Below, piece after piece: positions 496-18,410 of a stretch of DNA of 32,000 bases. The notes below the pieces were generated by a model. That model saw nothing but the letters and a program-made list of their open reading frames with translations. It did no database searches and was not told where the DNA came from. Every line of letters starts with the position of its first letter. Within the stretch, counting starts at the first letter, position 1. Location of the stretch: NCBI GenBank assembly GCA_965208905.1, contig OZ242365.1:1327902-1359901 (forward strand). Reading direction: 5' to 3'. A program made the translations under genes and the position numbers. This DNA is from Nitrosopumilaceae archaeon. Its GTDB lineage: Archaea > Thermoproteota > Nitrososphaeria > Nitrososphaerales > Nitrosopumilaceae.

Positions 496-511
496 ATGAA
501 AAAAATGACTA
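496..511 (+). pseudogene. detached 5' end (MKKMT + first base of codon 6) of the protease gene split by IS630
   Basis: ATG AAA AAA ATG ACT A at 496-511 abuts the IS. Deleting 512-1623 (IS plus one TA) joins it in frame to ATG 1626, giving MKKMTIMLACGMIVCTGLLAWSQS, a signal peptide with a charged n-region. A TTTTAAA TATA-like box lies about 25-30 nt upstream. Confidence 0.55.
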
Positions 512-538
512 TAGTTAGGTGCATAAATAACCCGACAC
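512..538. repeat. IS630 left terminal inverted repeat
   Basis: tagttaggtgcataaataacccgacac matches the reverse complement of 1595-1621 (tagttgggagcataaataatcctacac). Confidence 0.8.
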
Positions 539-543
539 CAGTT

Positions 544-1551
544 TTACACCGGTAGGATTTTGTCTAAATTTCTGAACAGAATGCTGCGCGGATCAAACTT
601 TATTTCCAGCGACTCGTATATCCGCATGATTTTCCTCCGGAAATATCTCTTGGCAGGTCGCTTGAAAGTCCGCCGTATCCTTGCCTTGCCGTTGAGCCAC
701 AGCCATTCGGCCGGATTCAGAAATGGTGAGTACGGCGGCAGAAATATTAGTTTGATGAAATCACTATTCTTTTTCAAGTATCGCTTTACGCGGCTAGAGT
801 TGTGATATGCAGCATTATCCAGTATTACGGCAACCTTGCCGAACCGTTTTTTCGTCTTGTTCAAATATCTGATAAAGGACCTGTCGTTGGCCTTGCTAGC
901 GGCCATATAGCATGTCTGCCCATCTAGCGTGATGCCACCGTATATGGTCTGGCGCTGGTTGCCGAGTGGCGTTTGTACCGGTATGGCATCACCGCGTGTA
1001 TAGACTGCGCCGCTGCCAAACATACTTAAATTTTGGTGGCTTTCGTCTACCATCACGAGTGTAAAACCGTCCTTTTCAAACATTTCTGCCTCCTTTTTGG
1101 TGTCTTTCTGCCAGATTTCGAGATCTTTCCTTGGTGGAATTCGGTCGGATATCCGGGGAGTCTTCCGTATAGTGAAGCCAAGAGACCTAAGGATACGGCG
1201 CGCTTGTGATTCGCTGTATTTTATGCCGGTCTTTTTCTCAGCCAGTTTAACAAATCCGTAGGCGGTAAATCGCTTGACACCGTTAATTATGTTCTCTAAT
1301 GTGTGGCGCGGTACGAAAGATGGACGGCCAGGCCTCGCACCATCGGCGAGGCCATCCAGGCCTTTGTGGTCGTAGGCATTAAGCCAATCATATATGGTGC
1401 TACGATCGACACCAAGCACATCCGCTGCCGCAGAGATGGTATATCCTTTAATGCGCACCATGTTTACGGCTACGATACGGGCGTGCTGTGTCGCACTCTT
1501 AGTCTGTTTTAGGGCAGCCTTTATTTTTTGGGCATTAGTTTGGTTATTCAT
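544..1551 (-). CDS. IS630-family (Tc1/mariner-like) DDE transposase
   Basis: N-terminal HTH (ISAAADVLGVDRSTIYDWL). DDE_3-type core with VMVDESH, ILDNAAYH and the signature LPPYSPFLNPAEWLW. Confidence 0.9.
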   Translation of the reverse strand: MNNQTNAQKIKAALKQTKSATQHARIVAVNMVRIKGYTISAAADVLGVDRSTIYDWLNAYDHKGLDGLADGARPGRPSFVPRHTLENIINGVKRFTAYGFVKLAEKKTGIKYSESQARRILRSLGFTIRKTPRISDRIPPRKDLEIWQKDTKKEAEMFEKDGFTLVMVDESHQNLSMFGSGAVYTRGDAIPVQTPLGNQRQTIYGGITLDGQTCYMAASKANDRSFIRYLNKTKKRFGKVAVILDNAAYHNSSRVKRYLKKNSDFIKLIFLPPYSPFLNPAEWLWLNGKARIRRTFKRPAKRYFRRKIMRIYESLEIKFDPRSILFRNLDKILPV

Positions 1552-1594
1552 ATAATTAGTTAGTAATTTTGATCATTTATGTATTTCTAATAGA

Positions 1595-1621
1595 GTGTAG
1601 GATTATTTATGCTCCCAACTA
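1595..1621. repeat. IS630 right terminal inverted repeat
   Basis: Reverse complement matches 512-538 at 23/27 positions and is followed by the TA duplication. Confidence 0.8.
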
Positions 1622-1625
1622 TATA

Positions 1626-5114: not shown

Positions 5115-7271
<2,157 letters not shown>

Positions 7272-7282
7272 CATAACTGTGA

Positions 7283-7603
7283 AAAATAGTAACAACTCAT
7301 ACCCTGTATATACAGTTTCATAACAACCTGACGGCTGCCAGTTATGTATATCTCATCAAACACCTGCACCGGCATTACCATGCGAAAGTGCTGGACGACG
7401 CGTGTGATGACATAGAGATACTGCACCTGCCGCCCCACACCCCGCAGCTCAACCCCATCTAGGCAGAGTGGAGGAAAGTAAGGGCGGCCATCGCCGACAT
7501 CTTCTTTGATGGCCTGTACAGTATGCGGAATGCCATAAGGCAGATTATTCGCAACGGGGAGATGACAATAGTTAAAATGTTTGACTGGCTGCTGGTACCA
7601 TAG
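7283..7603 (+). pseudogene. C-terminal remnant of a second, different IS630-family transposase
   Basis: Reads ...IEILHLPPHTPQLNPI*AEWRKVRAAIADIFF.... An in-frame TAG (7460-7462) replaces the conserved Glu of the LNPIE..W motif. The N-terminal two thirds are absent. Confidence 0.7.
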
Positions 7604-7854
7604 CGGCCCGATGCGTCTTGGAACTATCCCGGGGCCGGAAGTGGCCTACCCGTCTTCCGCAACCAGCTCTCTACAGGCGATGGGGCGGTAATGTCTATCT
7701 ATTCATTCTGAGTTTTTCCATTCTTTTTGACGAGTACCATACATGACAATCCGGGTGCTTGGGAATGGCAATCGTATTTTTGAAGCCATACAATTTTGGG
7801 CGTAGACCTACCGTTCCTTTAGATCATCTGTGATAGTACGGCACTTGTGCGGCC

Positions 7855-9759
7855 TTATGGTGGCAGATCCGCGGGAGCAAGTATGTCCGACACATAATAT
7901 CCTGACCCAAATATCAGACCATCGTGCATTACAAGCCATGTGCGCTTGGTCTCTTCGTTGCTTGTTACCGGATTTATATGGTTATAGGCGACCCATGTGC
8001 CGGTTCCACGGCTGATTGCATCTATAATGTCTTGTGTGGCGAGCACCTCTGTAATGGCGCCCCAGTCTGCGACCTGTCCTATCAGATTTGGATTTACGTT
8101 CTGCGCCAGTGTGGTTCCTGTCTGCGGGTCGACTACAAAGAGATATGTGGCGAGTGGTTCGTCCGGTGTAGCATCAAATGCTGCAATGGCGGCATCCTTA
8201 CCCTTGTCCTCATATTGAAGTACGCTGCTAAACGTCACGGCCTGCACCTGTGAGTCCAGTATGTAATAACCCGAGCCAAAGACCAGTCCATCGTGCAGCT
8301 GCAAGTATGTGCGCTTTAGTTGCTCTACACCCGTAGCCGGATTGTGGAATGTGTACGTAAGCCATATTCTGCCGTTCTCTCTTAGCTCTGCAAGCACATC
8401 ATCAACCGACCTGCCGGATGTGTCAAGTATGGTCTCGGGTTGTCCCACCCTGGCAGGCACTACCCCATCGGCCAATCTGGTCCAGGATGTGGCGTTTATC
8501 ACAAACGGGTATAACGCGTCGGTAATGACAGGTTGTTTAGGCGTTATGATGTCAACCCACGCGTTGTTCTCACGGTTCGACTCGTAGATAAACCTAGCAT
8601 AGTCTGTCACCGACTGAGTATCAGCATCTGCAACGGTATATGGTGATAAGAAGATATAGTCATCATGGAAAATATACCATGCGCGTTTGATCTGCGTTAT
8701 ACCGGTAAAAACGTCGTAAAATGCAACCTGTGTCCACCATGAATCTCCCTCCTCGAGTTGGTCTAACATCACATCGTTGCCCGTTGTCGATAGGGGGCGA
8801 ACAGACCCGGCTAGACTGGGTACTCCCCCATGTGCAAGAATGTGTGTCGAGTTTGTCGCCACAGGATACATATCAATATGGTTAAGCATGCCCGAAGAAA
8901 TGACATCAAAGCCCGTCTCGGGATTGTTTCTGTATGTATAGATAGTATCGTCTACTACTGATTGTACCCGAATATCTGGTAGTGATATGCTTGCACCAAA
9001 TATGTAGCCATCATACAATATGATATACGAATGAGTGAGCTGGTCAGTCTGGGTTGCTGGATTTCGTGACATATGCCACACCCAGATACCGTCCTCATGA
9101 GACTGTAGCTCTTCTTTGATGTCTTGCAGAGATTTGTCGGCCATATTCAGGTAGGGGCTGATGGTTCCCACCAGTCCGGGCGCCCTTCCATGAGCCTCCA
9201 CCTCCAGCGTTGCGGCATTAAGCACAAAGGTCGACTGTGTCGATAGGGGATCGGGTACATCCGGTGTTATGATATCAAAGGCAGCAATACCGCGGGCCAT
9301 ATACAGGATTTTGGCCGAGTCTGCCAGAGACTGGGCCCTGAAGTCGTGCGGATAATAACCCGAGCCAAAGACCAGTCCATCATACAGGTAGAGCCAAGTA
9401 CGTTTGAGCTGACTCACATCGGTAGCCGGGTTGTGGAATGTGTACGTCACCCATACACTGCCCCTTACCTCTAGTTCATCTAGCACATCTGTAACAGACC
9501 TTGAGGAGGTATCAAGTATGGTCTCGGGTTGTCCCACCCTGGCAGGCACTACGCCATCGGCCAATCTGGTCCAGGATGTGGCGTTTATTATAAATGGGTA
9601 CAGCTCATCTGTTATGACGGGCGCCTCGGGGGTGATAATATCAAAGGCACCAACACCATGTGTCTCGTACAGCTGCACTGTATCCTCTATAAATTGTTGG
9701 ACCTCAGAGTCTGGCAGGTAGTACCCTGCGCCAAATATGTAGCCATCATATAGGTGCAA
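7855..9759 (-). CDS. tandem single-Cache-like (sCache_2-type) repeat protein, 5'-truncated by the IS6 element (probable pseudogene)
   Basis: About five repeats of roughly 120 aa each end in W(V/L)TYTFHNP.T....KRT(W)L.L.DG..FGSGYY. The frame stays open upstream to 9852 through the IS inverted repeat. No ATG, signal peptide or TM segment is present, and the ORF begins in the middle of a repeat. Confidence 0.6.
   Translation of the reverse strand: MHLYDGYIFGAGYYLPDSEVQQFIEDTVQLYETHGVGAFDIITPEAPVITDELYPFIINATSWTRLADGVVPARVGQPETILDTSSRSVTDVLDELEVRGSVWVTYTFHNPATDVSQLKRTWLYLYDGLVFGSGYYPHDFRAQSLADSAKILYMARGIAAFDIITPDVPDPLSTQSTFVLNAATLEVEAHGRAPGLVGTISPYLNMADKSLQDIKEELQSHEDGIWVWHMSRNPATQTDQLTHSYIILYDGYIFGASISLPDIRVQSVVDDTIYTYRNNPETGFDVISSGMLNHIDMYPVATNSTHILAHGGVPSLAGSVRPLSTTGNDVMLDQLEEGDSWWTQVAFYDVFTGITQIKRAWYIFHDDYIFLSPYTVADADTQSVTDYARFIYESNRENNAWVDIITPKQPVITDALYPFVINATSWTRLADGVVPARVGQPETILDTSGRSVDDVLAELRENGRIWLTYTFHNPATGVEQLKRTYLQLHDGLVFGSGYYILDSQVQAVTFSSVLQYEDKGKDAAIAAFDATPDEPLATYLFVVDPQTGTTLAQNVNPNLIGQVADWGAITEVLATQDIIDAISRGTGTWVAYNHINPVTSNEETKRTWLVMHDGLIFGSGYYVSDILAPADLPP
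8423..8499. repeat. intragenic 77-bp near-identical direct repeat, copy 1
   Basis: Differs from 9512-9588 at one position. The offset is 1089 bp (363 codons, in frame). Flanking sequence is much more diverged. Confidence 0.85.
9512..9588. repeat. intragenic 77-bp near-identical direct repeat, copy 2
   Basis: Partner of 8423-8499. Confidence 0.85.
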
Positions 9760-9790
9760 CAGTGTGCGCTTTGTCTGTGGCTGTCCGTTG

Positions 9791-9840
9791 GGAACTGGTG
9801 CATCTTGGTGACCTAGTGTGTGGTGGTGCGTGGGTGACCT
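9791..9840. repeat. IS6-element terminal inverted repeat (transposase-distal end)
   Basis: Its reverse complement is 46/50 identical to 13343-13392. All four mismatches fall in a 7-nt patch (acacact versus gtacaac) between two AGGTCACC direct repeats. Confidence 0.8.
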
Positions 9841-9881
9841 GAGTTGAATTACTCAAATTAAAATGAAATGAAAAGGGGGAT

Positions 9882-11126
9882 TTATGCTGTGGATTTAGTT
9901 GCGGCTTGAATGAGTGTCATCCATTTGTTGTTACCTTCAACGGTAATACCTGCGGCCTCTGCTGGGGTTATTTGATTCGGTAATCCCAAGTGGGGTTTTA
10001 CAAAATTGTGATATAATCGCAGTCCAGAGATTATGCCAGAGTCTTCACGCTTAAGGCCACGGCACACTTTCTCTCTATGTCGCAGTGTTGCTCCGTTGAA
10101 TGATTCCATTTGGTTGTTATGATGTATGCCGTCAAACGCCACATCATGAATGTGTTCTGTATCTTTGTGTAGGAAGTTCTTTGCCTTGTATTGTTGCTTC
10201 CATGCATGATGGAAGTTAGCCGCTTTATCACTGATTAATGTGGTTGGGACTTTGCCTGTTACTTTTTTGGCTTGTTTAAACATGGGTGCCACATCATCAT
10301 TGCCCTTGTGTTCTGCTACCATCTTGGCTATCCAGAAGCGTGTCTCACTGTCTAGCATGGCGAATAGGTACTTTCTATTACCCTTGATTTTCAGATATAA
10401 CTCATCGGTACGCCATTGTTCACCAACTTGGGGTTTAATCTTGTCAACGAAGGTTTCCATCAGTTCTGCGTATTGTTTGCCCCATCGTTGTATGGTAGTG
10501 TGTACTACTGTAATACCAACCATCTTGAGTGTATTGGCCACCTTCCGTGAGGATAATCCACTAAACAGGAGATCTACTGCTTGAGTGATATGTTCAGGTG
10601 ATGCCTGCTTCTTTTCAAATCCTAGGTTTTGGATAAATCTCCTGCCACACGTCCTGCACCCGAACTGTTGTTTGCCACGCTTAATACCCTTCTTGATAAT
10701 ATCAGTTGAGTCACAGAATTTGCATTTTGTAAGGTCAACAACCTTGATAGTAGTGGTAACTTCCTCTTGGACGGCTGCCCTCATTCGCTTGCTAATTTCG
10801 ATTGCATGAGCGTGCTTGCATACAACACCCCTGTACATTGAATCGGGACAGGAACAAACCCATCCTGATTCTGTATGTATCACCTCATAGACTTTACTAG
10901 AGGATTGACTTCTTACAGTATAGGTTGTATCATCTATTCTGGTTATCTGATTAGGCTTGCCTGCTATCTGCGCACCCCGTGTGATTCTAGCCGCCTGACC
11001 GGGGCTATGGTTCTTATGGGGTGATAAGATAGTAGGCTCAGAGTGCAATTTGCTCTTCATTGGGATGGTCGAGATCCCTCTGACTTTCTTTTCATCATCG
11101 CCATACTTTGTTATTGTTTTATTCAT
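9882..11126 (-). CDS. IS6-family DDE transposase with N-terminal SWIM and zinc-ribbon fingers
   Basis: WRTDELYLKIKG..YLFAMLD, LISDKAANF and HHNNQMESFNGATLRHREKVCRGLK parallel the IS26 Tnp26 D, D and E regions. SWIM motif is CSCPDSMYRGVVCKHAH. Zinc ribbon is CKFC...CRTC. Confidence 0.85.
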   Translation of the reverse strand: MNKTITKYGDDEKKVRGISTIPMKSKLHSEPTILSPHKNHSPGQAARITRGAQIAGKPNQITRIDDTTYTVRSQSSSKVYEVIHTESGWVCSCPDSMYRGVVCKHAHAIEISKRMRAAVQEEVTTTIKVVDLTKCKFCDSTDIIKKGIKRGKQQFGCRTCGRRFIQNLGFEKKQASPEHITQAVDLLFSGLSSRKVANTLKMVGITVVHTTIQRWGKQYAELMETFVDKIKPQVGEQWRTDELYLKIKGNRKYLFAMLDSETRFWIAKMVAEHKGNDDVAPMFKQAKKVTGKVPTTLISDKAANFHHAWKQQYKAKNFLHKDTEHIHDVAFDGIHHNNQMESFNGATLRHREKVCRGLKREDSGIISGLRLYHNFVKPHLGLPNQITPAEAAGITVEGNNKWMTLIQAATKSTA

Positions 11127-11176
11127 GTATGTTATTAACGGTACGGTTATTTAACTGTTGCCAAAACCGCACGGTT

Positions 11177-11184
11177 TTTATATA
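11177..11184 (+). promoter_or_regulatory. TATA-like box for the small ORF / methyltransferase operon
   Basis: tttatata is centred about 25 nt upstream of ATG 11205. This is the spacing expected for a leaderless archaeal transcript. Confidence 0.35.
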
Positions 11185-11204
11185 GACATGTCTGTAATGT
11201 AATA

Positions 11205-11393
11205 ATGACGCGATGGAAAAAGAACGAGACAGAGTTCAGAGTCAAGATGCACCATTATAAGAACAGGGACGGCTCCGGCACATCAAGTTGCCGGATTCCC
11301 AGTCCTATAATTAACTACATGGGAAAGCCCAACGAATTGATATTTGTGATCAATAATAAGACGGGGGAGGTAGTCGTAAGTGCAGGTGACTAA
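11205..11393 (+). CDS. small AbrB/SpoVT-like (swapped-hairpin) protein, candidate R-M controller
   Basis: 62 aa. The C-terminal half SCRIPSPIINYMGKPNELIFVINNKTGEVVVSA fits the AbrB-type pattern (.IP..i...g....l.f.i....g.v.v). It overlaps the methyltransferase start by 14 nt. Confidence 0.4.
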   Translation: MTRWKKNETEFRVKMHHYKNRDGSGTSSCRIPSPIINYMGKPNELIFVINNKTGEVVVSAGD

Positions 11394-12441
11394 AACACTG
11401 GCGTATGAACCAGATGCCGTATCTGACTTTGACCTGCTTATGGGCGATTCGGCAGACGTACTGACACGATTTCCGGATAATTCGATCAACTGCACCGTCA
11501 CGTCCCCACCGTACTGGGGACAACGCGAGTATGACACAAAAGACAGCATCGGACATGAAGGTTCGTTTGATGAATACATGCAACACTTGATATGCGTGTT
11601 TGACCAAGTGTATAGGGTAACGGCAAAAGATGGGTCGTTGTGGCTCAACATCGGGGACAGATACCACAACAAGAATCTCATGGGTATGCCTTGGAGGGTC
11701 GCGCTTGCCCTGAAGGATCGGGGATGGATACTGCGCAATGACATAATTTGGAACAAGGTACGCATGACTCAGAGCGCAAAGGACAGGCTCCGTGACCTGC
11801 ACGAGTATGTGTTTCACTTCGTCAAGAATCCAAAATATTACTATAACAGGAAGGCTATACTGATCAAGCACGACGAGAAACCCAAAAGACGTAACGGTAG
11901 ACTTGTGTCAATCACAGGTACAAGTGGGATCCGTTACAGGGAACAGATACGACTGTCAACGCATCTCTCAGACACGGAAAAACAAAACGCAGTTACGGCA
12001 TTGGACAATACACTACACGACATGGCAGACGGCAAGATTGTGGATTTTCGCATGGCCATACGCGGACAACAAAGAACGTCACATGGTTCCAGTGAAAAGA
12101 TCAGTGGTAGAGCAAAAGAGATAGAAAAGTACGGATTCTATGTCATATCGCAGAGTTCGGAGGGATACATGCCTACCGACTTGTGGAGTATCGTACCGGA
12201 AGACACACACCGAAAAGACATACACTGCGCGGTATATCCAACTACCCTCTTGGAGATCCCGATAAAGGCGACATGTCCACCGGGAGGACTCGTACTAGAT
12301 CCGTTTACGGGAACTGGTACTACTATAGTGGCCGCCCTCAAGCACGGCAAGCGTGGTATAGGCATAGACGTGAGTAGCGCTTATCTTACACATGCAGAAA
12401 ACAGGATAAAGACATTCCAGCAGACGGGACTAGAATGTTGA
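11380..12441 (+). CDS. beta-class N4/N6 DNA methyltransferase (N6_N4_Mtase family), probably m4C
   Basis: Motif IV TVTSPPYW is near the N-terminus and motif I VLDPFTGTGTT near the C-terminus, which is the beta order. SPPY is typical of N4-cytosine enzymes. The start is GTG. Confidence 0.9.
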   Translation: MQVTKTLAYEPDAVSDFDLLMGDSADVLTRFPDNSINCTVTSPPYWGQREYDTKDSIGHEGSFDEYMQHLICVFDQVYRVTAKDGSLWLNIGDRYHNKNLMGMPWRVALALKDRGWILRNDIIWNKVRMTQSAKDRLRDLHEYVFHFVKNPKYYYNRKAILIKHDEKPKRRNGRLVSITGTSGIRYREQIRLSTHLSDTEKQNAVTALDNTLHDMADGKIVDFRMAIRGQQRTSHGSSEKISGRAKEIEKYGFYVISQSSEGYMPTDLWSIVPEDTHRKDIHCAVYPTTLLEIPIKATCPPGGLVLDPFTGTGTTIVAALKHGKRGIGIDVSSAYLTHAENRIKTFQQTGLEC

Positions 12442-13275
12442 GACCGGATCACTTTTGTTTATTTTTGCCCCTATGATTTTTTTGGCGTCCTCATAGTTGA
12501 TGAGCAGGTTACCATCAACTGCAAACGAGAACAAGAGATCAACCCACCTCGTGGCCATAATCTTCTTTCTGCGTATGCGGTATCGTTTATCTTCTTCTAC
12601 AAGTGAGTACAGGAAAAACATGAATGTCTCAGTAGAGTAGGACTTGATCTCATGCGTTTGTATCTTGAATTTCGATGTGAACTGCTCCCACAACTCGTCC
12701 TGCATGACGGCTATATATGGCATCTTCCATTCGTCGAACAACTGTCCCTTGAAGATAAACTGTGGTAGAAATCCCTTGAAGGACGCAAGCGTATTTAACC
12801 CAAATGTGTAACTTTTTTTGAGCCTATCATTTAACAGGTCATCTATCGCAGTCGCAAATGATCCCGTACCCGTTGTGGCATCGGACTGTATCTCTACCCC
12901 TATGAACCTGTTTGGGTCTCTGACCGGTGTTAATATCCAGTCAAGATTACCGTAATCAAATCTCTCGTTGTCTGTCTTCTTTGCCAGTTTGACTTCGTTG
13001 CGTGCGTCAGTTTGTACCTCGGATCCCCAAATAAAGTCTCGTATTTCGTGCAGTATCTTATAATCGTCCTCATAAAATCGCCGCGGGCAGATGATCCTGT
13101 TTCTGTCTCCCAGACATGCAGAACAGTTGCCGTATTTCGATGCAGTTCGGTTGGGCTTGTCACACTGGACGATGCGCCTGTCAAACGGACACCCATAATC
13201 GCGGTTGCGAAAGCGGGCCTTGGCCACGTCTGAATCGAATTTTTCGCCAAACGCCTCCAACTGTCTATTTGTCAT
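12430..13275 (-). CDS. type II restriction endonuclease, NotI-like
   Basis: N-terminal Cys cluster is CPF..(8)..C..(12)..CSAC..(8)..CPRRF. The core LDWILTPV...IGVEIQSDATTGTGS parallels NotI FDWTLVEV...GVLEIQTMDFHGS. It converges on the methyltransferase with a 12-bp 3' overlap. Confidence 0.7.
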   Translation of the reverse strand: MTNRQLEAFGEKFDSDVAKARFRNRDYGCPFDRRIVQCDKPNRTASKYGNCSACLGDRNRIICPRRFYEDDYKILHEIRDFIWGSEVQTDARNEVKLAKKTDNERFDYGNLDWILTPVRDPNRFIGVEIQSDATTGTGSFATAIDDLLNDRLKKSYTFGLNTLASFKGFLPQFIFKGQLFDEWKMPYIAVMQDELWEQFTSKFKIQTHEIKSYSTETFMFFLYSLVEEDKRYRIRRKKIMATRWVDLLFSFAVDGNLLINYEDAKKIIGAKINKSDPVSTF

Positions 13276-13295
13276 GAAATATGTTGACTGACTTG

Positions 13296-13304
13296 TTTAT
13301 AATA
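13296..13304 (-). promoter_or_regulatory. TATA-like box for the endonuclease gene
   Basis: The minus strand reads tattataaa, centred about 25 nt upstream of the ATG at 13275. Confidence 0.35.
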
Positions 13305-13342
13305 TATCTTGAGAGTGTGTGATATAATTCCCGGGGATTCCT

Positions 13343-13392
13343 AGGTCACCCACGCACCACCGTACAACAGGTCACCAAGATGCACCAGTTCC
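13343..13392. repeat. IS6-element terminal inverted repeat, inner copy
   Basis: aggtcacccacgcaccaccgtacaacaggtcaccaagatgcaccagttcc. Confidence 0.8.
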
Positions 13393-13626
13393 TATTTCGT
13401 GCAGTATCTTATAATCGTCCTCATAAAATCGCCGCGGGCAGATGATCCTGTTTCTGTCTCCCAGACATGCAGAACAGTTGCCGTATTTCGATGCAGTTCG
13501 GTTGGGCTTGTCACACTGGACGATGCGCCTGTCAAACGGACACCCATAATCGCGGTTGCGAAAGCGGGCCTTGGCCACGTCTGAATCGAATTTTTCGCCA
13601 AACGCCTCCAACTGTCTATTTGTCAT
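13372..13626 (-). pseudogene. duplicated 5' fragment of the endonuclease gene (stand-alone Cys-cluster domain ORF, 84 aa)
   Basis: The first 78 codons are identical to 12430-13275. The frame then runs into the IS inverted repeat (..HEIGTGASW*). Confidence 0.7.
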
Positions 13627-13693
13627 GAAATATGTTGACTGACTTGTTTATAATATATCTTGAGAGTGTGTGATATAATTCCCGGGGATTCCT

Positions 13694-13743
13694 AGGTCAC
13701 CCACGCACCACCGTACAACAGGTCACCAAGATGCACCAGTTCC
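13694..13743. repeat. IS6-element terminal inverted repeat, outer copy
   Basis: Identical to 13343-13392. It contains the outward-facing ATG at 13731. Confidence 0.8.
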
Positions 13744-15365
13744 AAAATAACGTTACTGATATATACTTTGATTCAATAGCATCTGTTATGGCTGGAAAGC
13801 GAATAGTTCTCACGGCCGACCGTAGTCTGATGACTAACTACCGCGGGAACTTTTTATACGGTTTTATCGCTTGTGGCCCGTATGAAGTTTTACCTGAATG
13901 GGTATTCGATAAAGTATTCTGCCCTGCCGTAGAGACTGACCCACAGACCGGCGAGGCCAAGGTTGCGCAGGTGGGATTGAGGCGGGTAGAGAGCGCACTA
14001 CTTCAGGGGTATGGTCGAGACGAGGTGTTTGTGGCCAATCCAGATCATCTAGACAAGGTCATAGGTCCAGACACCAAAGTGGTAGGAATCAATGTTATGG
14101 ACCCTCTGGGAATGGCACCGGTTACCACCACCATGTCACCAGAAAAGTTGTCATATGTGGCAATGAAATTCAAAAAGATGTGTGCCTCGATAATTCAACT
14201 AAAGAAGAAGCATAACTTTCACGTGGTCGTGGGTGGAAATGGAGCTTGGGAGCTGGCAAAGACTGACCGTATGAGAATACATGGCGTAGACACCGTGGTG
14301 GTGGGCGAAGCAGATGAGTTGGCTTTAGATCTATTTCATGATTTGGAGGCGGGTGATGCCCCCGAACTGATGCACTGCTTTGTCAAAAACATACAGAATA
14401 TACCCCGAATACAGGGGCCTACTGTCAACTCACTAATTGAGGCCATGCGGGGTTGTGGGCGAGGATGCGACTTTTGTGACGTCAATAAACGCTCCAAAAA
14501 AGATCTTCCCATAGATAGACTCCAGACCGAAGCAAAGATCAATCTGGATTATGGATTTGACTCCATATGGCTACATTCAGATGAGATGCTCCTATACGGG
14601 TGTGATAATCGTGACTTTATACCCAACAAAGATGCCATCACCGAGTTGTGGAGCGGTATGAAGAATTTAGGGGCTAATTTTGTGGGAACGACACATATGA
14701 CATTCTCGGCAGTGGCCGCAGATCCGGACCTGATGTATCAGATAGCAAACATCAATCGTCAACATGAGTCTGGAAGATGGCTTGCCACAAACCTTGGTAT
14801 AGAGACTGTGTCTCCCAAGATGGTAAGAAAGCACTTGGGGGTCAAAACCAGACCGTTCTCATATGAAGAATGGGGTAGTGTGGTTAGGGAAGGTGCTGCC
14901 ATACTTAACAAGAATCACTGGTTCCCGGCAGCCACCATAATAATTGGATGGCCGGATGAGACCCCTGAAGATGTACAGTATACGATAGACATGATGGATG
15001 ACTTCCGGACGATGGACTTTAGAGGACTGGTGGCACCATTACTATATCAAGACTTTAGTGAAAAGAACTCTATGCATTTTGGTAACTTGAACGAGGCCCA
15101 GTTTACACTATTCTGGAGATGCTGGGAGAATAATCTACGGGTAATCAACGATATTATTCCAATAATACTGCGCAACAAGACATATGGCCCGCCCATGAAA
15201 GTGTTTATGTATGGTATAATCAAGGCTGGAACGTGGGCTATAATGAGATATCTTCGGGGTCTCTGTAAAGATTTGTTTAATGGCCGTACCCCCGATGAAA
15301 TAATCGAAAAATACTCAAAGAGTCGTTCTGTCTCTGCTCCCCGTATGCAAACAAAGAAACTCTAA
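13731..15365 (+). CDS. radical SAM protein with N-terminal B12-binding-like (Rossmann) domain
   Basis: CX3CX2C cluster motif is CGRGCDFC. An upstream VVVGGNGAWEL...VDTVVVGEADE pattern is typical of class-B-like radical SAM enzymes. ATG 13731 lies inside the IS repeat, so the native start is more likely ATG 13788 (MAGKRIVL...). Confidence 0.8.
   Translation: MHQFQNNVTDIYFDSIASVMAGKRIVLTADRSLMTNYRGNFLYGFIACGPYEVLPEWVFDKVFCPAVETDPQTGEAKVAQVGLRRVESALLQGYGRDEVFVANPDHLDKVIGPDTKVVGINVMDPLGMAPVTTTMSPEKLSYVAMKFKKMCASIIQLKKKHNFHVVVGGNGAWELAKTDRMRIHGVDTVVVGEADELALDLFHDLEAGDAPELMHCFVKNIQNIPRIQGPTVNSLIEAMRGCGRGCDFCDVNKRSKKDLPIDRLQTEAKINLDYGFDSIWLHSDEMLLYGCDNRDFIPNKDAITELWSGMKNLGANFVGTTHMTFSAVAADPDLMYQIANINRQHESGRWLATNLGIETVSPKMVRKHLGVKTRPFSYEEWGSVVREGAAILNKNHWFPAATIIIGWPDETPEDVQYTIDMMDDFRTMDFRGLVAPLLYQDFSEKNSMHFGNLNEAQFTLFWRCWENNLRVINDIIPIILRNKTYGPPMKVFMYGIIKAGTWAIMRYLRGLCKDLFNGRTPDEIIEKYSKSRSVSAPRMQTKKL
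13758..13766 (+). promoter_or_regulatory. TATA-like box for the radical SAM gene (supports the start at 13788)
   Basis: gatatatac is centred about 26 nt upstream of ATG 13788. The same spacing is seen at the other promoters in this window. Confidence 0.35.
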
Positions 15366-16402: not shown

Positions 16403-16783
16403 TTATTCTGTAATGACTTTTTTGACAGACTCTATGACATTCATGTAATCATCATCCTTGCCACTTATGGTTACGATATATGCTATGTTTTCGGAGGGTA
16501 TGAGGACCATCTTTACCTTTTTATGAACTACTAACATATGCTCCATTCTTCCGATATGATCTTCAGAATCTCGACTTATATTTAGAATCGTGGATAAGAC
16601 AAAGAACTCGTTTTTTGCCTGTTCGCGACCCAACATGGGCTGAGTCCCTGACCGTATAAACCCGGTAACTGTACGCCCGTACTTGTTTATTGCGCCCACA
16701 TATCGTATACTACTTGAAATATTCAGTATACTCTTGCATATCTTTGCTTGTTTGTCTACATTAGTGCTCTGTCTTTCTGACAT
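16403..16783 (-). CDS. hypothetical protein (possibly roadblock/LC7-like fold)
   Basis: 126-aa ORF with an alternating alpha/beta-like pattern. The assignment is weak. Confidence 0.5.
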   Translation of the reverse strand: MSERQSTNVDKQAKICKSILNISSSIRYVGAINKYGRTVTGFIRSGTQPMLGREQAKNEFFVLSTILNISRDSEDHIGRMEHMLVVHKKVKMVLIPSENIAYIVTISGKDDDYMNVIESVKKVITE

Positions 16784-16810: not shown

Positions 16811-16883
16811 TATGTTTGCTATATGCTGATGTGATGTATCGTAAATGATGTAGAACCCATACGACTATCATCTCACCAATTAT

Positions 16884-18362
16884 GGGAATTATATAGATAA
16901 GAAAACAGCCACAGCTGCGCGCTTATCCCTTTTCTGACGACTTTTCTGTATGGAGTGGAGCATGGCGGGTGTTGGCTTGTAGCCCTCCTTGTGCCCCGGC
17001 CGTCTTAGGACGACGTTCCCCGCCGCCCGATACAGAATGTTCCAGGCGGCATTGACATCCGCGTGGAACACTCTGGTACAGTTAGTGCAAATGAACTTAT
17101 CGCGTGATATACGCGACTCTGAGTCTACGTGACCACACACATGGCACGTCTGGCTCGTATATTTGGCCGATGCCCCCAACAGCGGTATGTTGTGCATCTC
17201 ACACCACTGCGCAAGCTTGCGCAGGAACTCCCCAACACGGTTCTCCCGCATTGAACGGTTCATGGCGCGTTTGTAATTCCCGCCATGGGTGGTCATATCC
17301 TTTACGGAGAGCGATTCGACCACGACTGCGTCCACACCATTAGTTATCTGCGCAATCGTCTGATTTATCGTGTTCGCGGCTATGTTGTTGGCCTTCCTGT
17401 ATAGCCGCTTAATTTGGTCATTCAATACACACCACTTCCGGCCATGCCGTACCTTATGGTCACGAAGGTTCTTGAGCGCGTCAATCTCCCGCAGGATTGC
17501 TCTATGGCGTGTGTTGTGTATTGTAACATTGCCATTTGTGTCGACGGTAACTGCCAGGTGTTTGCCGCCCACATCAACACCACGTATTACACCTGTATTG
17601 CGGTGCGGCTCGACCGGGACGCGCACGGCGATATGTATCTCAAACATGTGGTCGGACGGCTTTGTATGCTTGTCCACCCGTTTGGTGACATCAACTATCT
17701 TGAATGAGCGCATGTCCCATGATACATCGATGGGCTTGGCGGTCTCCACCGTACCATATCCGGGGATATGTATGGTGTGCTCACCTTTTCGTACAGGCGG
17801 TGTAACGGAACAAAGTATGATGCGGCCGTCTTTGCGGCGGTACGGCGCGTGGTCTGAGTTGTCATCTATAACCCTTCTACATGCGGCGGAGGCATCCTGT
17901 ATGGCGCCCCTGCCAAACGATGCGGGGCACTCGCGCAGCCATGTATGTTTGGCGCGCCACCCCGTAAGCTGCTTGAACATGCCATACTTTAATGCCCTCT
18001 TTGACGGCCCAAAATCATATGTATGGTAGTCATCGTCCAGCGTACCTGATGTAAAACCACCTAGTTTGCCCGGCAGTTTGAATGGCTGAAGGATGTCCAC
18101 TACCACCCTCTCCATATATTCGCCACCAAACAAATACTCTGATACGGCGCGGTTGTACACATATCTTGACGCATGATTCGTGCGGTGCGCCCACTCTACA
18201 AACAACACATCCTTTCGTAGCGGTACCTTGACTATCCGTATCATGATGTGTAATACGGTATACTGGTATTTAAGGAAGAATGTGGCGCATAGGCATGAAA
18301 TCCATGGTGGTTTAGGCGTTAACCAAAACCTCCGCAGGGGTGTTCTAATCTATATAATTCCC
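16884..18362 (-). mobile_element. TnpB-only element bounded by terminal inverted repeats and an 8-bp target-site duplication
   Basis: 23-bp TIRs at 16884-16906 and 18340-18362 match at 21/23, and the outer 15 bp GGGAATTATATAGAT are perfect. They are directly abutted by CCAATTAT at 16876-16883 and 18363-18370. Confidence 0.8.
16889..18244 (-). CDS. tnpB: TnpB (OrfB) RuvC-like RNA-guided endonuclease family protein
   Basis: RuvC motifs are GVDVGGKHLAV (D), AVVVESLSV (E) and FHADVNAAWNI (D). Zinc ribbon is CHVCGH...CTNC. The N-terminus has the YVYNRAV pattern. Confidence 0.9.
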   Translation of the reverse strand: MIRIVKVPLRKDVLFVEWAHRTNHASRYVYNRAVSEYLFGGEYMERVVVDILQPFKLPGKLGGFTSGTLDDDYHTYDFGPSKRALKYGMFKQLTGWRAKHTWLRECPASFGRGAIQDASAACRRVIDDNSDHAPYRRKDGRIILCSVTPPVRKGEHTIHIPGYGTVETAKPIDVSWDMRSFKIVDVTKRVDKHTKPSDHMFEIHIAVRVPVEPHRNTGVIRGVDVGGKHLAVTVDTNGNVTIHNTRHRAILREIDALKNLRDHKVRHGRKWCVLNDQIKRLYRKANNIAANTINQTIAQITNGVDAVVVESLSVKDMTTHGGNYKRAMNRSMRENRVGEFLRKLAQWCEMHNIPLLGASAKYTSQTCHVCGHVDSESRISRDKFICTNCTRVFHADVNAAWNILYRAAGNVVLRRPGHKEGYKPTPAMLHSIQKSRQKRDKRAAVAVFLSI

Positions 18363-18410
18363 CCAATTATCATACAAAACATCAAATATGTCTTGTAAAA
18401 CTTACTATGT

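Follow-up and report, generated by a model that had tools for sequence, protein, structure and literature searches.

A tnpB gene as sole cargo of an inverted-repeat insertion sequence with an 8-bp target-site duplication in a thaumarchaeon

The window analysed here, a 32,000-nt stretch of thaumarchaeal genomic DNA, contains a 1,479-bp element (16884-18362, read directly from the window) that is bounded by terminal inverted repeats (TIRs), flanked by an 8-bp target-site duplication (TSD) and encodes a TnpB nuclease. We consider it probable that this element is a transposase-less insertion sequence (IS), the sole gene of which is an intact tnpB and which is mobilised in trans. The host is judged, from the source names of homologues, to be a sponge-associated, Cenarchaeum-like thaumarchaeon. 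With filled and empty alleles known, the insertion represents a clean, population-verified case of a prokaryotic RNA-guided nuclease on a TSD-making transposon, an association long thought typical of eukaryotic Fanzors.

Two copies of CCAATTAT directly abut the element, one on the tnpB 3' (right-end) side at 16876-16883 and the other on the tnpB 5' (left-end) side at 18363-18370. Inside them lie the 23-bp TIRs. The right-end TIR (16884-16906, minus strand) reads GGGAATTATATAGATAAGAAAAC inward; the left-end TIR (18340-18362, plus strand) is GTGTTCTAATCTATATAATTCCC on the plus strand and GGGAATTATATAGATTAGAACAC when read inward. The two repeats match at 21 of 23 positions and are perfect over their outer 15 nt. 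A repeat search returned them as the longest inverted pair in the region, and the outer 15-mer is present at only two places in the 32-kb window, the two element ends. The TIR pair and the flanking CCAATTAT copies, which a preliminary description of this DNA had reported, were thus recovered both by direct reading and by the repeat search. The element has a G+C content of ~0.53, as compared to ~0.39 in the flanks. Its sole long ORF is tnpB (16889-18244, minus strand; 451 aa), in agreement with the earlier statement that TnpB alone is encoded, and the stop codon is located 5 nt from the element end, the final codons and the stop being held within the right-end TIR. An antisense ORF (17370-18029) was judged spurious; it is open in some copies of the element and broken in one (L121).

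The 8-bp repeat is a true TSD. Ten contigs, drawn from MAGs and from ENA and Logan assemblies, were recovered by looking up the 126-aa protein encoded next to the element (16403-16783). In eight of these (L203, L204, L206-L211) the same 140-bp intergenic region is free of the element and has ATAATTGG, which is CCAATTAT in reverse complement, just once; the site reads ...TTTTGTATG ATAATTGG TGAGATGATAG... in all eight (empty-site sequence, TTTTGTATGATAATTGGTGAGATGATAG). These contigs represent closely related Cenarchaeum-like populations whose flanks are 97-99.8% identical to the window. When the window was aligned to the empty sites by BLAST, the gap was exactly 1,479 bp and the two alignments overlapped by 8 bp. 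At L205 (GCA_965243275.1) the same site is filled and the junctions are identical to those of the window, while the remaining contig, L212, ends short of the insertion site. Because the empty sites carry one copy of CCAATTAT and no element, the repeat was generated upon insertion, as the preliminary description had proposed, and did not pre-exist as two copies at the same spacing; the existence of these sites also excludes a chance origin of the repeats. The occurrence of a filled allele (L205) and of empty alleles in near-identical flanks shows that the insertion is real, recent and polymorphic in the population.

The encoded protein is an intact TnpB under purifying selection. It exceeds the cut-offs of the Pfam families OrfB_IS605 (PF01385; 32.6 bits, cut-off 30.5) and Cas12f1-like_TNB (PF07282; 62.1 bits, cut-off 26.3) and of the NCBIfam model guided_TnpB (NF040570; 126.9 bits, cut-off 100), and it matches solved TnpB and Cas12f chains. 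The RuvC residues D224, E310, and D396 and the zinc-ribbon cysteines C367, C370, C386, and C389 are invariant across 21 aligned family members, and the catalytic and zinc residues align with the catalytic motifs of solved TnpBs; the intact RuvC D/E/D triad and zinc ribbon claimed earlier are therefore upheld. pN/pS values of 0.21-0.38 between tnpB copies indicate that selection has maintained the protein through successive transpositions.

The element belongs to a tight, multi-copy family of homologues in these archaea, with at least 10 distinct variants on one 2.2-Mb contig. We compared the window insertion with six further independent insertions of relatives, in which TnpB is from 90% to 28% identical to that of the window. 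The closest, L121 (90%), is 1,469 bp long and has TIRs that match at 24/24 positions and a perfect TSD, TAAATTAA. L202 (84%; 1,442 bp) has TIRs matching at 18/23 positions and a TSD matching at 6/8; in L213 (80%; 1,472 bp), the left end is mutated at two positions and the TSD matches at 7/8. L214 (60%) measures 3,432 bp including a nested IS, with 32/33 TIR and 7/8 TSD positions matching. Perfect duplications, CGTCTCAA and AACATCTG, flank the two most diverged members, L215-L219 (32%; 1,437 bp; TIR 21/25, beginning GGGGGTGGTAAG...) and L222 (28%; 1,418 bp; TIR 16/26), respectively.

In all seven insertions tnpB is the only gene of the element, L214 additionally containing the nested, unrelated IS; the TIRs start with GGG and the eight-bp duplications are all different. 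The terminal 12 nt of the right-end TIR of the window, GGGAATTATATA, are identical in L121, L202, L205, and L214. The right-end repeat of every insertion contains the tnpB stop codon, at 5 nt from the tip in close members and at 12-14 nt in distant ones, and the conserved C-terminal (S/C)-I-stop of the family is the repeat itself, translated. The family represents a deep TnpB lineage of thaumarchaea whose tnpB gene and element ends have evolved together. The location of the stop codon within the TIR, noted at first for the window copy, is thus a layout shared by six other independent insertions. Each of the six also has a TSD of its own, and none displays the IS605-type ends that would have spoken against the original description; all show TIRs and TSDs instead. 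A site-specific integrase is excluded because the duplications differ at every site. Scanning genome contigs with the 15-nt TIR core gave 120 loci, all of them chance matches in unrelated bacteria in which the similarity ends at the 15-mer. When metagenome contigs were scanned with the family alignment, the relatives among the matches listed were 23-42% identical, mostly below ~31%; a scan of viral contigs returned no matches.

The 3' end of tnpB may serve a second function. The last ~230 nt on the tnpB strand are predicted to fold with z = -3.28, and 0/200 shuffles fold as well. RNAalifold analysis of five copies yielded seven helices with 63 pairs, and 93.6% of the cells in the alignment are paired. 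Ten compensatory pairs were counted in this alignment of five fairly similar sequences, which are also constrained by coding, as compared to 4.8 ± 1.7 in shuffles (2/500 reach ten) and 0-5 in slid controls. Synonymous divergence falls from ~0.45 in the middle of the gene to 0.21 in codons 391-435, within about the last ~60 codons, pointing to a second constraint there. The 3' ends of the distant members L215 and L222 are unusually stable as well (z = -3.8 and -2.2). The predicted multi-helix fold (16887-17083, minus strand) is conserved and would end at the element tip, since the terminal UAUAUAA of the repeat is predicted to base-pair, in a long-range helix, with nucleotides ~190 nt upstream. 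Rfam gave no match in this region, only sub-threshold chance matches, and a covariance model of the fold (R1) recovers close copies only, missing the distant L215 and L222. The predicted RNA is most likely an omega-RNA scaffold embedded in the tnpB coding region. The suggestion, made in the preliminary description, that any such scaffold would have to reside in the 3' coding sequence is thus supported by fold stability, compensatory changes and reduced synonymous divergence.

A scaffold terminating exactly where the element does would take its guide from the flank, the 8-bp TSD coming first. With IS200/IS605 omega RNAs and Fanzor reRNAs (PMC10711439) as models, we predict a guide segment at 16864-16883 (minus strand), consisting of the TSD followed by ~12 nt of flanking DNA (ATAATTGGTGAGATGATAGT when written on the strand of tnpB). 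The whole RNA would measure ~210-230 nt, reaching on the minus strand from about 17083 through 16884 and 16-20 nt into the flank. No consistent TAM-like motif precedes the seven duplications; the sole common feature is a G at position -1 in 6/7. The same ~25 nt may play three roles, as transposase-binding repeat, as the end of the tnpB ORF and as the 3' end of the probable guide-RNA scaffold.

How did the element arrive at this site? We propose that it entered the intergenic region via an 8-bp staggered cut followed by repair, a hallmark of DDE-type transposition. The 8-bp duplication and the symmetric repeats together point to a DDE-type transposase acting in trans; encoded elsewhere, it would recognise the GGGAATTATATA... 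ends. The last ~200 nt of tnpB would double as a structured RNA ending at the element tip, with a guide read from the flank and beginning with the 8-bp duplication. TnpB would then, as in IS605, probably act by cutting element-free copies of the site, which would help the element to be retained or copied. The structural part of the trans-mobilisation model put forward in the preliminary description has held, while the transposase itself enters the model by inference.

TnpB is usually carried by IS200/IS605 and IS607 elements, and the IS607_TnpB and IS200_TnpB models match the window protein, though below threshold. On that basis the element might be a conventional member of IS200/IS605 (IS1341-type) or IS607 that depends on a Y1 or serine TnpA for its movement, its repeats being coincidental. 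We give this reading almost no credence: the empty sites prove an 8-bp duplication, the seven insertions have different duplications that each abut GGG... inverted repeats, and no Y1 or serine recombinase gene is found among the called genes at their loci. IS605 and IS607 are described as having neither TSD nor TIR (PMC13565253; PMC6188088). Y1 (IS200/IS605) and serine (IS607) transposition are excluded because neither yields TSDs or inverted repeats (PMC13565253; PMC4810608), and with them the corresponding element architectures, given 21/23-matching TIRs and a TSD proven by empty sites. The statement that the element does not have an IS200/IS605 architecture is therefore correct. It resembles these elements in other respects. 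The nuclease is of the same kind, scoring above the guided_TnpB threshold, TnpB-only copies occur (as in the IS1341 group), and the RNA structure predicted here would cover the 3' end of tnpB and finish where the element does. In contrast, IS200/IS605 and IS607 elements lack TIRs and TSDs; their ends bear subterminal hairpins or GG, and a Y1 or serine TnpA moves them. IS200/IS605 insertion proceeds without TSD 3' of a fixed 4-5-nt target, whereas we observe seven different duplications.

A more radical alternative is that the element is autonomous, with TnpB, alone or together with host repair enzymes, inserting it and the duplication resulting from a staggered RuvC cut. TnpB and Cas12 enzymes do cut DNA with a stagger, all seven insertions are solo in a lineage that is deeply diverged (28-90% identity), selection on tnpB is purifying, and the gene evolves in concert with the ends. 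However, we know of no TnpB that integrates DNA. Moreover, a guide derived from the flank of the current insertion would be unable to steer cleavage to other, unrelated sites, and the seven target sites are unrelated. The symmetry of the inverted repeats suggests a transposase that binds the ends as a dimer. We regard autonomy as very unlikely. The broader proposition that this deeply diverged archaeal TnpB lineage exists solely as solo TIR/8-bp-TSD elements with no cognate transposase, integration being carried out by TnpB and its RNA or by a host enzyme, appears to us just as improbable; if TnpB plus RNA or an unrecognised host enzyme did integrate the element, this would be a transposition route new for any TnpB.

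If a transposase acts in trans, as we favour, its gene should lie elsewhere. None of the seven insertions has a cognate DDE transposase within its ends, and searches of the window and of 303 kb of related thaumarchaeal DNA revealed no transposase with matching ends; the autonomous IS with the same TIRs and a DDE transposase envisaged in the preliminary description was likewise absent from this DNA. An IS630-like element in the window (510-1623) was rejected as the mover, as it has its own, different 29-bp TIRs. An IS6-like gene in the window (9882-11126) encodes a protein matching DDE_Tnp_IS240, and IS6 family members typically make 8-bp duplications, but no GGGAATTATATA-like sequence occurs around the gene, and the sole inverted repeat there is duplicated host sequence. 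The IS66-like transposase nested in L214 is a comparable candidate: perfect 8-bp TSDs surround the IS66-like elements of L220-L222, and one such copy has landed in a TnpB element. The intact copies in L220-L222 encode a 580-aa protein (Pfam DDE_Tnp_IS66) and have GTAACCGTTCACCCCC ends, which are unrelated to GGGAATTATATA, and no IS66-like homologues were returned from contigs that carry window-type elements. The L214 copy (1,959 bp), whose transposase is frameshifted, is located in the leader that separates tnpB from the left end, and since taking it out restores a normal 106-nt leader, it represents a nested insertion. With GTAA ends of its own, stand-alone copies with 8-bp TSDs and a nested position, the IS66-like transposase of L214 was rejected as the cognate enzyme; the TnpB elements themselves begin with GGGAAT... 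and not with GTAA. That either the IS6-like gene or the IS66-like transposase moves the family is therefore improbable.

A transposase of the IS1595 family (ISNwi1-like, Merlin-related) encoded elsewhere in the genome is a possible mover, though we would not count on it. The ISfinder end consensus of the ISNwi1 group is 'ggnnatTAT'. ISPepr2, a member of this group, has CGGAACTATCACC ends, an AT-rich 8-bp TSD (AAAATAAT) and an ORF whose stop codon lies within the right repeat, all of which resembles the TnpB element, and its termini share GGAAyTAT with GGGAATTAT (ISPepr2, CGGAACTAT). 8-bp TSDs and GG termini, as seen here, are features of the IS1595 family (PMC8101967). However, the similarity extends over only ~8 terminal bases, and 8-bp duplications are made by several other families too. 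ISPepr2 also differs in encoding a DDE_Tnp_IS1595 transposase, whereas none is present in or near the TnpB elements. Two IS1595 transposases used as tblastn queries gave nothing below E = 0.1 in these 303 kb of related thaumarchaeal DNA, and no IS1595-type transposase is found among the called genes of the loci. Since this DNA has no such transposase, the resemblance of the ends to IS1595 stays a lead.

The transposase-less, trans-mobilised element that we favour is, in its arrangement, already known in kind. Six branches of DDE-transposase-associated TnpBs (DDE-1 to DDE-6) with inverted terminal repeats were described by Altae-Tran et al. in 2023 (PNAS, PMC10691335), together with solo TnpBs that have the same ends and are presumably mobilised in trans. 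As in our family, TIRs surround tnpB, solo copies occur and the tnpB 3' end is near the transposon end (PMC10691335), less than 250 bp from it by the definition used; the stop codon lies 5-14 nt from the end here. The preliminary description therefore had the structure right but implied more novelty than it holds, prokaryotic DDE-associated and solo TnpBs with inverted repeats having been reported already (PMC10691335). Differences exist nevertheless. Our family has a thaumarchaeal host and an 8-bp duplication, and its seven insertions are all solo with no transposase in cis, whereas some members of the DDE-associated branches contain a DDE transposase inside the same ends. ISL2, IS630, and IS1031 elements make 2-3-bp or TA duplications. 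These are the families to which a 2026 review assigns the transposases of the DDE TnpB branches (PMC13565253); the 8-bp duplication points to a transposase family other than these three.

Fanzors in eukaryotic DNA transposons with TIRs and TSDs offer a parallel, in that a TnpB-type nuclease travels as cargo of a cut-and-paste element (Bao and Jurka, 2013, PMC3627910; Yoon et al., 2023, PMC10711439). In Fanzor elements the guide-RNA scaffold overlaps the TIR and the duplication is situated at the start of the guide (PMC10711439). The element described here differs in being archaeal and in encoding a compact 451-aa TnpB with a canonical RuvC domain and zinc ribbon. The comparison drawn in the preliminary description thus holds as an analogy and does not extend to homology of the carrier transposons. 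The arrangement raises the questions of whether TnpB benefits a DDE-type element, given that a break is left upon its excision in any case, and how a TAM is chosen where insertion sites vary. A compact archaeal TnpB with a defined putative RNA region is also a prospect for engineering.

Upstream of tnpB, the 5' leader (18245-18339, minus strand) separates the gene from the left-end TIR, and the distance from the left-end tip to the ATG is 81-118 nt across copies. A TTAAATA motif in the leader (18267-18275), ~25-30 nt upstream of the ATG, is conserved in the window, L121, L202, and L213. The motif is TATA-box-like and may be part of a promoter of tnpB.

The strand opposite to tnpB holds an open reading frame of 219 aa (window 17370-18029, plus strand). 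Of five copies compared, four keep it uninterrupted and the one at locus L121 has it broken; codon usage probably gave rise to the frame as a by-product.

The terminal repeat of the TnpB element has a near match elsewhere in the window. A perfect 351-bp tandem duplication occupies 13039-13741, where 13039-13338 and 13390-13689 are 100% identical, and takes in the 5' end of a gene for a NotI-like restriction enzyme and the first codons of a radical-SAM gene, together with the divergent promoter region. Within the duplicated promoter lies TGATATAATTCCCGGGG, which almost exactly matches the element terminus, TATATAATTCCC; by this resemblance, the repeat tip has the look of a native TATA-box promoter. 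All related contigs, the one with the same TnpB insertion among them, lose synteny with the window at 13744, and past this point the window carries a strain-specific block (~9790-13744). The block encodes an IS6-like transposase (9882-11126), a DNA methylase (11380-12441), and the NotI-like enzyme (12430-13275); its boundary is formed by the radical-SAM 5' region, repeated there in inverted orientation (9790-9840). Relatives have a THF-dehydrogenase gene in its place, which the window lacks.

The distant P0043-type TnpB element occupies the same site in five contigs (L215-L219). In L218, the sequence from 11377 onward, directly past the 8-bp duplication, is unrelated to that of the other four contigs and encodes an SNF2 helicase and a type ISP restriction gene. 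This abrupt loss of similarity places a rearrangement breakpoint exactly at the element boundary. L216 and L215 are polymorphic for a DDE_3 insertion related to an IS630-family element of the window (510-1623), which has 29-bp inverted repeats starting with TATAGTT and encodes a 335-aa transposase with DDE_3 and HTH domains on the minus strand (544-1551).

An archaeal insertion sequence of ~2.4 kb, resembling the IS66 family, is present intact at three loci (L220-L222, about 5863-8245). It encodes a 580-aa transposase and, on the opposite strand, a 101-aa ORF; its ends read GTAACCGTTCACCCCC, and its 8-bp duplications are perfect (GATTCCAT, GAGTCCGT, and TGTAATAT). Another copy (L214, 7982-9940) is nested in a TnpB element; at 1,959 bp it is shorter, carries two frameshifts, and lacks a matching duplication.

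Among the chance matches from the scan with the 15-mer, the perfect outer part of the TnpB-element inverted repeat, an Acidiferrales contig (L010, 949-1119) contains two exact, inverted copies 156 bp apart. Together the two could form a small element, palindromic or MITE-like, that has no relation to the TnpB element.
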